4,449 nucleotides of DNA from IMG/VR virus record IMGVR_UViG_2778261509_000009. One strand, given 5' to 3'. Under the pieces are notes generated by a model, which was not told the DNA's origin, did not search any database, and worked only from the letters and a program-made list of their open reading frames with translations. This stretch comes from a virus (taxonomy: Duplodnaviria; Heunggongvirae; Uroviricota; Caudoviricetes). The translations under genes and the position numbers were made by a program. Shown here piece after piece: positions 2,913 through 3,721 of this stretch; positions within the stretch are counted from its first letter, which is position 1; each line of letters starts with the position of its first letter.

Positions 2913-2925
2913 CAAAGCCTCCTAT

Positions 2926-2943
2926 TGTTAGACTTTTCTAACA
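2926..2943. promoter_or_regulatory. operator O1: palindrome TGTTAGA-cttt-TCTAACA in the dicC/dicA divergent intergenic region
   Basis: Exact 7-bp inverted arms with a 4-bp spacer, read directly. The same palindrome recurs at 3437-3454. Lies immediately upstream of the dicC-like SD and overlaps the candidate -10 of the minus-strand promoter. Confidence 0.65.
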
Positions 2944-2970
2944 TTATTGTGCGCGGGATACCTAAGTCAA
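2943..2970 (-). promoter_or_regulatory. candidate sigma70 promoter for the Cro-like/replication operon: -35 TTGACT (plus-strand 2965-2970), 16-bp spacer, -10 AATAAT (plus-strand 2943-2948)
   Basis: Hexamers read on the minus strand. Predicted transcription start near 2936, giving a leader of about 24 nt to the dicC-like ATG. Operator O1 overlaps the -10 and start site. Not experimentally supported. Confidence 0.4.
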
Positions 2971-2992
2971 GAAAAATTAGAATTACCTAACT

Positions 2993-3400
2993 ATGGATAC
3001 AAGAACCCTAGGCCAGCGAGTTCTGGCGCGACGAAAAGAATTACGCTTAACACAACGAGAAGCTGCGCGCCTCGCTGGGGTTGCTCACGTCACAATTTCA
3101 CAATGGGAAAGAGACGAAACCCAGCCAGTCGGAAAACGATTGTTTGCTTTAGCGGATGCTCTGAAGTGCTCACCTACATGGCTAATGTTTGGTGACGAAG
3201 ACAAGGCACCAGTGCCGGCACAAGAACTTCATGTGGAAACAGAGCTAACTCCCAACCACAAAGAATTGATCGAATTATTCGATGCTCTTCCATCTTCCGA
3301 GCAGGAAGCCTTGCTGTCTGAAATGCGCGCAAGAGTAGAAAACTTCAACAAACTCTTCGAAGAAATGCTTAAAGCGCGTAAAAATAAATCAATAAAATAA
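2993..3400 (+). CDS. dicA: XRE-family HTH repressor, DicA-like (135 aa); prophage immunity repressor
   Basis: ATG start. Classic HTH region LTQREAARLAGVAHVTISQWERDE. Overall sequence (...GKRLFALADALKCSPTWLMFGDEDK...LIELFDALPSSEQEALLSEMRARVENFNKLFEEMLKARK) matches my recollection of E. coli DicA in length and motifs. Divergently arranged with the Cro-like gene. Confidence 0.92.
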   Translation: MDTRTLGQRVLARRKELRLTQREAARLAGVAHVTISQWERDETQPVGKRLFALADALKCSPTWLMFGDEDKAPVPAQELHVETELTPNHKELIELFDALPSSEQEALLSEMRARVENFNKLFEEMLKARKNKSIK

Positions 3401-3432
3401 CATTCTTTTCAAGTGATTAGTTGCGCCCACTC

Positions 3433-3458
3433 TTTTTGTTAGACTAATCTAACAAAAA
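3433..3458. promoter_or_regulatory. operator O2: perfect 11-bp inverted repeat TTTTTGTTAGA-ctaa-TCTAACAAAAA (core TGTTAGA-N4-TCTAACA at 3437-3454)
   Basis: Read directly; arms are exact reverse complements. Same core and spacer length as O1. Sits between the repressor stop and the ydfA-like gene. Confidence 0.7.
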
Positions 3459-3462
3459 ACAC

Positions 3463-3491
3463 TTGCCTCTTATGTTAGGTTATTCTAAATT
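3463..3491 (+). promoter_or_regulatory. candidate promoter of the rightward operon: -35 TTGCCT (3463-3468), 17-bp spacer, -10 TAAATT (3486-3491)
   Basis: Weak hexamers (each about 4/6 to consensus), but flanked by O2 upstream and overlapped by O3, the arrangement expected for a repressor-controlled promoter. Low confidence. Confidence 0.3.
3473..3490. promoter_or_regulatory. operator O3 (degenerate): TGTTAGg-ttat-TCTAAat
   Basis: Same 7-4-7 architecture as O1 and O2 with one mismatch in the left arm and two in the right arm. Centre lies 36 bp from the O2 centre. Confidence 0.5.
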
Positions 3492-3568: not shown

Positions 3569-3721
3569 ATGGATACTATCGATCTTGGCAACAGCGAATC
3601 TCTGGTATGTGGCGTGTTCCCCAACCAGGACGGCACGTTCACCGCGATGACGTATACCAAAAGCAAAACGTTTAAAACCGAATCTGGCGCGCGTTGCTGG
3701 TTAGCCAGAAACACTGACTGA
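3569..3721 (+). CDS. ydfA: YdfA-like small protein (50 aa), first gene of the repressor-controlled rightward operon
   Basis: ATG at 3569 preceded by an SD (GGGGAAATGAGGTCAGC-ATG). Translation MDTIDLGNSESLVCGVFPNQDGTFTAMTYTKSKTFKTESGARCWLARNTD matches my recollection of E. coli Qin YdfA, which follows dicA in Qin. The track ORF begins earlier at 3515, but that extension has no homology support. Confidence 0.8.
   Translation: MDTIDLGNSESLVCGVFPNQDGTFTAMTYTKSKTFKTESGARCWLARNTD

Follow-up and report, generated by a model that had tools for sequence, protein, structure and literature searches.

The window, the whole 4,449-nt stretch of phage DNA analyzed here (IMG/VR record IMGVR_UViG_2778261509_000009), contains two divergent regulatory genes whose ATGs are separated by 80 nt. 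On the plus strand, a dicA-like repressor gene (2993-3400) encodes a 135-aa protein with an HTH_3 domain (E = 1.5e-14). On the minus strand, a dicC-like Cro-type gene (2685-2912) encodes 75 aa from an ATG at 2912-2910; its product matches P22_Cro (E = 1.1e-12) and phrog_409, and some RefSeq records annotate it as 'dicB transcriptional regulator DicC'. Further along the minus strand, profiles annotate a YdaT/CII-like gene (2180-2701), an O-like replication initiator gene (1234-2253) and a gene for a DUF977 protein (771-1193). In the other direction, the dicA-like gene is followed by a second set of operators (3439-3452 and 3475-3488) and then by a DUF1391 (ydfA-like) gene on the plus strand (3569-3721), again annotated by profile. 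With its CII-like and O-like genes, the locus is apparently carried on an intact lambdoid phage backbone.

The repressor is 57% identical to DicA of Escherichia coli K-12 over 132 aa, along the full length of the protein, and this identity, together with the RefSeq naming of DicC, marks the locus as an allele of the Qin-type dicA/dicC module. A prophage in E. coli ETEC1738 carries DNA 100% identical to this sequence; of 5426 complete E. coli genomes, 3880 contain matching DNA, which in 564 covers at least 80% of the 1.1-kb query. Phage mEp460_ev081 matches the region at 97.6% identity and has dicB annotated further downstream; for the mEp460 immunity region, we found nothing in the literature beyond genome-announcement mentions. 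K-12 Qin and the window share their gene order (dicC-like leftward, dicA-like rightward, then ydfA), the 135-aa length of the repressor, an Oc palindrome that abuts the dicC -10, and a second operator pair that precedes ydfA. They differ in that Qin is decayed, whereas the phage backbone of the window is apparently intact, and in that K-12, unlike the window, has no ydaT gene beside dicC.

The leftward, PR-type promoter of the dicC-like gene consists of a -35 element TTGACT (2965-2970, minus strand) and a -10 element AATAAT (2943-2948, minus strand), with a predicted start at about 2936. TTGACT-16-AATAAT matches the consensus at 10 of 12 positions; no other match in the 4.4-kb window reaches 10/12, which makes it the top promoter hit. 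A minus-strand promoter of at least 10/12 arises in 0.7% of dinucleotide shuffles of the 80-nt intergenic region. Over the window as a whole, promoter-like matches that reach 9/12 show no enrichment (4 found versus 6.2 expected). The mRNA from this promoter would carry a strong Shine-Dalgarno sequence, AGGAGG (2918-2923, minus strand), 5 nt before the dicC-like ATG, in contrast to the repressor gene, which has none. Measured from Oc, AATAAT and the K-12 -10 are in register, and the latter, which we read as TATCTT, fits the 5'RACE-mapped dicC start; the spacer of the promoter is 16 nt here versus 17 in K-12.

Downstream of this -10 lies the main, Oc-like operator (O1), a perfect palindrome TGTTAGA-CTTT-TCTAACA at 2926-2943. 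The sequence-only reading had proposed that O1 overlaps the leftward -10. It does, but by 1 nt only: the 20-mer at 2925-2944 spans -8 to +12 of the dicC-like promoter, and it is this stretch that the operator mainly covers. The placement is identical to that of the annotated DicA site of K-12 dicCp, which also runs from -8 to +12. In K-12, the dicC start has been mapped by 5'RACE, Oc overlaps the dicC -10, and DicA represses dicC (Yun et al. 2012, PMC3441716). With O1 placed to match, the geometry of a genetic switch, as first proposed for this DNA, probably holds here by analogy with K-12.

The repressor gene presents a different start. Its ATG at 2993-2995 is the first start listed for the 135-aa open reading frame, and it is the only possible one, because an in-frame TAG at 2978-2980 blocks any start further upstream. 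Other start codons were considered and set aside for the same reason on the upstream side, and because the next in-frame start downstream lies inside the HTH domain. The repressor N-termini align across the lineages described below, in which the columns of the C-terminal tail (...LPxSEQ...MRARVxNFNKLF) are invariant. Between -20 and -1 relative to this ATG there is no GG, no 4-mer of AGGAGG (AGGA, GGAG or GAGG) and no AAGG, in agreement with the initial observation that the gene lacks a Shine-Dalgarno sequence. The analysis supports ATG 2993 as the true repressor start despite the absent ribosome-binding site. We also considered, and rejected, an influence of mRNA folding at the 5' end on access to the AUG: the first 60 nt of the predicted mRNA fold as shuffled sequence does (z = -0.21), and a long-leader version is likewise ordinary (z = -0.32).

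Upstream of this ATG, on the plus strand, is the -10 hexamer TAGAAT (2978-2983), the analogue of PdicA, separated from the ATG by 9 nt (TACCTAACT) and standing in the same register as TAGCAT of K-12. Both its coordinates and its distance from the ATG had been given correctly from the letters, as had the positions of the ATG itself and of the leftward -35 and -10. The best -35 candidate, GGGATA (2955-2960), is weak, matching at 3 of 6 positions with 17-nt spacing to TAGAAT, which bears out the earlier remark that the repressor promoter has no good -35. The two promoters are interleaved, as that reading had it, with the leftward TTGACT inside the spacer of the rightward promoter. In a scan of 2500-2992, GGGATA-17-TAGAAT was the only plus-strand arrangement of at least 8/12 upstream of the ATG, and with no other match at that threshold in the interval we discarded the candidate of a further upstream promoter. 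A -10 of at least 5/6 placed 6-10 nt from the ATG arises in 4% of dinucleotide shuffles of the 80-nt intergenic region, a moderate significance for a single sequence that leaves the repressor -10 suggestive, so that the real weight comes from conservation.

The K-12 homologue allows the start of the repressor mRNA to be predicted. In K-12, dRNA-seq puts the dicA transcription start site at -3 relative to the ATG (Romero et al. 2014, PMC4681348); given a 1-nt uncertainty in the coordinate convention of the table in that study, the leader is 3 or 4 nt. dicA is among the five E. coli mRNAs found to have a leader shorter than 10 nt, the others being racR, ymfK, pgpA and rhlB, and RLM-RT-PCR of pgpA, rhlB, dicA and ymfK appears in supplementary Fig. 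S1 of the same paper (PMC4681348). A later ribosome-profiling study handled dicA as a known leaderless gene. When the K-12 sequence TAGCATTAGCTAACTATG is set against TAGAATTACCTAACTATG of the window, the two are in the same register, as the intergenic DNA shows at length (...agtcaa-tacgatt-TAGCAT-tagctaact-ATGGAA in K-12, ...agtcaa-gaaaaat-TAGAAT-tacctaact-ATGGAT here). They share a distance of 22 nt from the dicC -35 to the dicA ATG, a 9-nt gap between the -10 and the ATG, and CTAACTATGGA as the start context; the repressor -10 is better here (TAGAAT versus TAGCAT). In K-12, transcription starts at base seven past the hexamer, exactly where a -10 element canonically places +1, and transcription here is accordingly predicted to begin at A2990, possibly at A2989. 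The sequence-only reading had expected a start 2-3 nt before the ATG, and the K-12 start at -3 in the same register points to the same place. By this analogy, the repressor mRNA is predicted to carry a leader of 3-4 nt that contains no Shine-Dalgarno sequence.

Whether such an mRNA should be called leaderless depends on the definition. In a strictly leaderless mRNA the AUG is 5'-terminal, and here the 9-nt gap predicts a 3-nt leader, ACU-AUG. Under the broader definition (a leader shorter than 10 nt and no Shine-Dalgarno sequence; Romero et al. 2014), the Shine-Dalgarno sequence is absent here and in 16/16 lineages. The proposed resemblance to lambda cI thus probably stands in part: the repressor mRNA lacks a Shine-Dalgarno sequence and, by analogy with K-12, would start adjoining the ATG, but with a leader of about 3 nt it would not begin with the AUG itself. 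We therefore describe it as a predicted near-leaderless mRNA (2-4 nt), as against the strictly leaderless mRNA of lambda cI. Leaders of 1-4 nt are reported to reduce leaderless initiation, so a 3-nt leader should not make an efficient leaderless substrate.

The operators follow a common pattern, TTAGR-N4-YCTAA, which occurs at four sites in the window (2928, 2977, 3439 and 3475) versus 0.49 expected; none of 200 shuffles reached four, and all four sites fall within the two regulatory regions. Two of them lie within 2913-2992, with their centres 49 bp apart. The first is the main operator, which is centred at -55.5 from the predicted repressor start and whose edge is separated from the -35 candidate by 11 bp. 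The second is an Oa-like palindrome at 2975-2992 (core TTAGA-ATTA-CCTAA, 2977-2990), which covers the repressor -10, the predicted start and the bases before the ATG; its core, which stops at the predicted start, includes the final five bases of TAGAAT. This palindrome around TAGAAT was absent from the sequence-only reading. K-12 likewise has an Oa-like palindrome over the dicA -10 and start, TTAGCATTAGCTAA. Between the two palindromes, no match to the operator pattern that could correspond to a middle operator (Om) was found, in which the window differs from K-12; the interval holds only a half-site-like block, CCTAAG, at 2961-2966. The operators themselves are of the type TGTTAGAC..GTCTAACA here and TGTTAGTC..GACTAACA in K-12, and with this difference in sequence the immunity specificity is probably different as well.

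Homologous loci were assembled from genomes and IMG/VR and reduced to 16 lineages, with repressors that share less than 90% identity among themselves and 56-72% with the window protein. The lineages were drawn from Citrobacter, Buttiauxella, Enterobacter and uncultured IMG/VR phage contigs; copies from Pantoea and Erwinia, which clustered with an Enterobacter representative, have the same layout, and Campylobacter matches were excluded because they covered a short C-terminal motif only. The hexamer is TAGAAT in 14 of the lineages, TAGCAT in one (K-12) and TAGTAT in one, with T1, A2, A5 and T6 invariant throughout (16/16). It lies 8-9 nt from the ATG in 15/16, for a predicted leader of 2-3 nt, and 6 nt from it in the remaining lineage (L179/L180), the only one with a predicted leader of 0 nt. 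A Shine-Dalgarno 4-mer or a GG between -20 and -1 is absent from all 16, and the leftward -35 is TTGACT or TTTACT in every one. Since all 16 lineages keep a -10 6-9 nt from an ATG without a Shine-Dalgarno sequence, the near-leaderless design is a trait of the DicA family that reaches beyond the decayed Qin prophage. Among 84 near-identical alleles, which are non-independent copies, there are 0 polymorphisms in 2968-2995 and 18 variable sites in 2913-2967.

Collectively, what is observed directly in the window and its relatives comprises the motifs with their geometry and conservation, and the homology. We are confident in the explanation that these support as a whole, namely that 2913-2992 (80 bp) is the PR/PRM-type control region of an E. 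coli lambdoid immunity switch of the DicA/DicC (Qin-type) class. The experimental results on the start sites, on DicA binding at Oc and on the DicA requirement of PdicA come from K-12 only.

Of the alternatives, the one that survives best holds that a long-leader transcript, itself without a Shine-Dalgarno sequence, is the main or an additional source of the repressor. This transcript would arise from a PRE-like plus-strand promoter within the dicC-like or CII-like genes under activation by YdaT and would leave the TAGAAT promoter a minor or maintenance-only role. Lambda uses both PRE and PRM. The CII-like/YdaT gene at 2180-2701 on the minus strand could supply the activator, and the YdaT protein of Rac raises racR expression through a reverse promoter that it activates within ydaS, the equivalent of lambda PRE. 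Against this, GGGATA-17-TAGAAT is the sole plus-strand sigma-70 match of at least 8/12 in 2500-2992, although activator-dependent promoters could escape such a scan. Matches to the lambda CII box (TTGC-N6-TTGC) and to the Rac YdaT box (ATGATT-N6-AATCAA) were at or below chance, with none suitably placed. Moreover, K-12 has its primary start at -3 and no ydaT beside dicC, and a long-leader transcript would complement rather than replace the leaderless one. On balance, we regard such a transcript as a real but distinctly minority possibility.

A second alternative takes TAGAAT to be a half-site and spacer of the Oa operator and no -10 at all, with the promoter elsewhere and a leader without a Shine-Dalgarno sequence translated via A/U-rich sequence. 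TTAGA-ATTA-CCTAA does fit the pattern found at three other sites, and the CTAA directly before the ATG is also conserved across the lineages. As TAGAAT lies within an operator-like palindrome, its conservation could partly reflect protein binding. What argues against operator function alone is the pattern of constraint. A5 and T6 of the hexamer belong to the palindrome spacer, yet neither ever changes; the two spacer bases that follow them do (TA, TG, AA, TC), and the main (Oc) operators show free variation in their spacers across lineages. Together with a K-12 start that lies exactly 7 nt after the equivalent hexamer, this argues for a -10 constraint on top of the operator constraint. In K-12, DicA did not bind Oa in vivo, and the scan of 2500-2992 offered no alternative plus-strand promoter of at least 8/12. 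We therefore consider this reading improbable. Finally, that the motifs arose by chance in intergenic DNA rich in A and T (35% GC), as the lack of window-wide promoter enrichment and the frequency of a well-placed -10 in shuffles might suggest, is effectively refuted by the mapped start sites of the K-12 homologue, by the retention of position and sequence in 16 diverged lineages and by the absence of polymorphism in 2968-2995 among the 84 alleles, and we give it next to no weight.

The preferred reading, a near-leaderless repressor mRNA from the TAGAAT promoter, invites comparison with the cI/PRM-PR region of lambda. In both, the repressor and Cro genes diverge and the two promoters are overlapped by operators; both have a weak -35 in the repressor promoter and positive autoregulation, which on the DicA side has been shown for K-12; and both have a repressor mRNA that lacks a Shine-Dalgarno sequence and starts at or adjoining the AUG, as predicted here. 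The differences are equally clear. The cI mRNA starts at the A of the AUG, compared with a predicted leader of about 3 nt. Lambda has start sites about 80 bp apart and three evenly spaced operators, whereas the divergent starts predicted here are about 54 bp apart and 2913-2992 holds two recognizable operator sites, so it lacks the tripartite form of lambda OR. CI activates from OR2, which adjoins the PRM -35 (centre at about -42), while the main operator here is centred at -55.5, making a lambda-style contact with sigma unlikely. A site at -55.5 also falls between the usual class I activator positions. DicA, moreover, is short, lacks the RecA-cleavable domain and is controlled by an antirepressor.

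Two other K-12 prophage repressors, racR of Rac and ymfK/cohE of e14, bear comparison as well. Like dicA, both encode HTH repressors, both have primary starts at or abutting the start codon in the same dRNA-seq study, and both face a divergent Cro-like gene. Leaders of 0 nt, versus 3 nt for dicA, set them apart; they also belong to other protein families with other operators, and Rac has several racR promoters as well as the YdaT-activated reverse promoter.

How might DicA promote its own synthesis without a lambda-style contact? In K-12, dicA shows no consensus promoter, and a PdicA reporter needs DicA to be active (Yun et al. 2012, PMC3441716). The positive autoregulation that had been floated as a speculation for the present DNA is thus published for the K-12 homologue and by analogy would apply here. 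In the Reg-Seq reporter for K-12 dicA, no RNA polymerase site was detected. This negative result means that dicA has a very weak or context-dependent promoter and does not place that promoter elsewhere; it also fits a dependence on scarce DicA.

In the model that we infer for this allele, covering its start site, translation route, occlusion mechanism and the role of the second palindrome, the strong TTGACT-16-AATAAT promoter would fire leftward from about 2936 into the dicC-like, CII-like (YdaT) and O-like genes, and the DicA-like repressor bound to the palindrome at 2926-2943 would shut it off. The weak GGGATA-17-TAGAAT promoter would fire rightward from about A2990. With the leftward -35 in the spacer of the rightward promoter and about 54 bp between the starts, RNA polymerase bound at either promoter should exclude the other. 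Polymerase on the strong leftward promoter should cover the entire rightward promoter, and repressor at Oc would remove that polymerase. By occupying the main operator, the repressor would in this way favour transcription of its own gene, an effect that would look like positive autoregulation, and from the geometry it is likely that the reported DicA activation is at least partly relief of promoter competition. Having a leader of about 3 nt and lacking a Shine-Dalgarno sequence, the resulting mRNA would probably be translated by a leaderless or near-leaderless route, and probably inefficiently, which may keep the repressor scarce. DicA abundance, as quoted in the Reg-Seq source, is 20-25 copies per cell, a very low level that poor translation from a 3-nt leader fits.

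The degenerate operator-like palindrome at 2977-2990 would supply the reverse control. It is likely the site where Cro-like DicC or excess repressor shuts the repressor gene off, as at lambda OR3. DicC overexpression represses dicA in K-12, according to Pan (2019) as cited, and DicA showed no in vivo binding at Oa or Om in K-12 (Yun et al. 2012, PMC3441716). Across the lineages, the Oa-like site, TTAGAAT(T/A)(A/G/C)(C/T)CTAA, is near-constant even where the main operators differ in specificity (TGTTAGA... versus CCTTAGG...). A bolder, joint version of the model would have the repressor -10 and start built into a degenerate operator palindrome family-wide, DicA 'activation' consisting purely of relief from competition, and a leader of 2-3 nt selected to limit translation. 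We put this combination forward tentatively, as possible but rather doubtful in its entirety.

The initial reading of this DNA, in which interleaved divergent promoters serve a repressor mRNA that lacks a Shine-Dalgarno sequence and starts about 3 nt before its ATG, is very probably right, judged by the K-12 homologue. It is also already known in kind and in family, because the switch, the near-leaderless mRNA and the autoregulation have been published for that homologue and the critical bases are shared. What the analysis does is to place a prophage lysis-lysogeny switch in the experimentally studied DicA/DicC class, with little import beyond annotation. The additions are modest: a near-leaderless layout that is family-wide, a -10 nested in an operator-like palindrome, and a geometry that speaks against a lambda-style activation contact and suggests that autoregulation may work via promoter competition. 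If the joint reading of palindrome, competition and leader is true, then DicA/DicC would be a mechanistic variant of the lambda paradigm and not a copy of it.

The distance between the repressor -10 hexamer (TAGAAT, 2978-2983 in the window) and its start codon differs among the 16 diverged lineages compared. The predicted leader is 2-3 nt long in 15 of them, whereas the remaining lineage, represented by the IMG/VR loci L179 and L180, carries TAGAAT upstream of position 598, followed by just 6 nt and then ATGATG. Judged from this spacing, the predicted transcription start falls on the first ATG, which would give a true 0-nt leader.

Among 84 near-identical copies of the window allele, which are not independent samples, polymorphism between the divergent genes (2913-2995) is confined to the dicC side, 2913-2967. 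The variable sites there include positions 2933, 2934 and 2937 in the spacer of the main operator palindrome, Oc, 2944 and 2947 in the dicC -10, and 2917, 2920 and 2924 in the dicC Shine-Dalgarno sequence, which reads AGGGGG in most copies rather than AGGAGG. No variable site was found among these copies in the 28 nt leading up to the repressor ATG (2968-2995). The repressor gene itself has decayed by frameshift or truncation in E. coli ECMA0423 (L091) and in two Shigella flexneri loci (L092 and L093), leaving ORFs of 17, 72 and 5 aa, respectively; the region upstream of these copies is mutated, yet recognisable.

A second regulatory region lies at 3430-3491, 5' of a ydfA-like gene (3569-3721), where two further operator-like palindromes, one perfect (3437-3454) and one degenerate (3472-3490), are placed around a weak promoter (TTGCCT, 3463-3468; 17-nt spacer; TAAATT, 3486-3491). 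The degenerate palindrome and the site covering the repressor -10 show 89% complementarity. This region is the window's counterpart of K-12 dicBp, or of lambda PL/OL.

In the leftward operon, the last 17 nt of the dicC-like gene (2685-2701; stop, 2687-2685) are shared with the start of the CII-like/YdaT gene (ATG, 2701-2699), an arrangement that suggests translational coupling. Within the O-like replication gene, three tandem 12-nt repeats, TATTCTCTGTAG (1701-1736), precede four to five iterons, CATTTTGA[A/C]C.GATG, spaced at 23 nt (1740-1871). Together, these repeats (1701-1871) appear to form a lambda-style origin that lies inside the initiator gene.

Protein matches to the repressor extend to Campylobacter concisus (L094-L105), where they are limited to residues 82-115, the C-terminal ELIELFDALP.SEQ... 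motif, at 53-62% identity; the exception is L094, whose match spans residues 19-115 at 30% identity. These matches suggest that the repressor's C-terminal region is a portable module common to distant bacteria.
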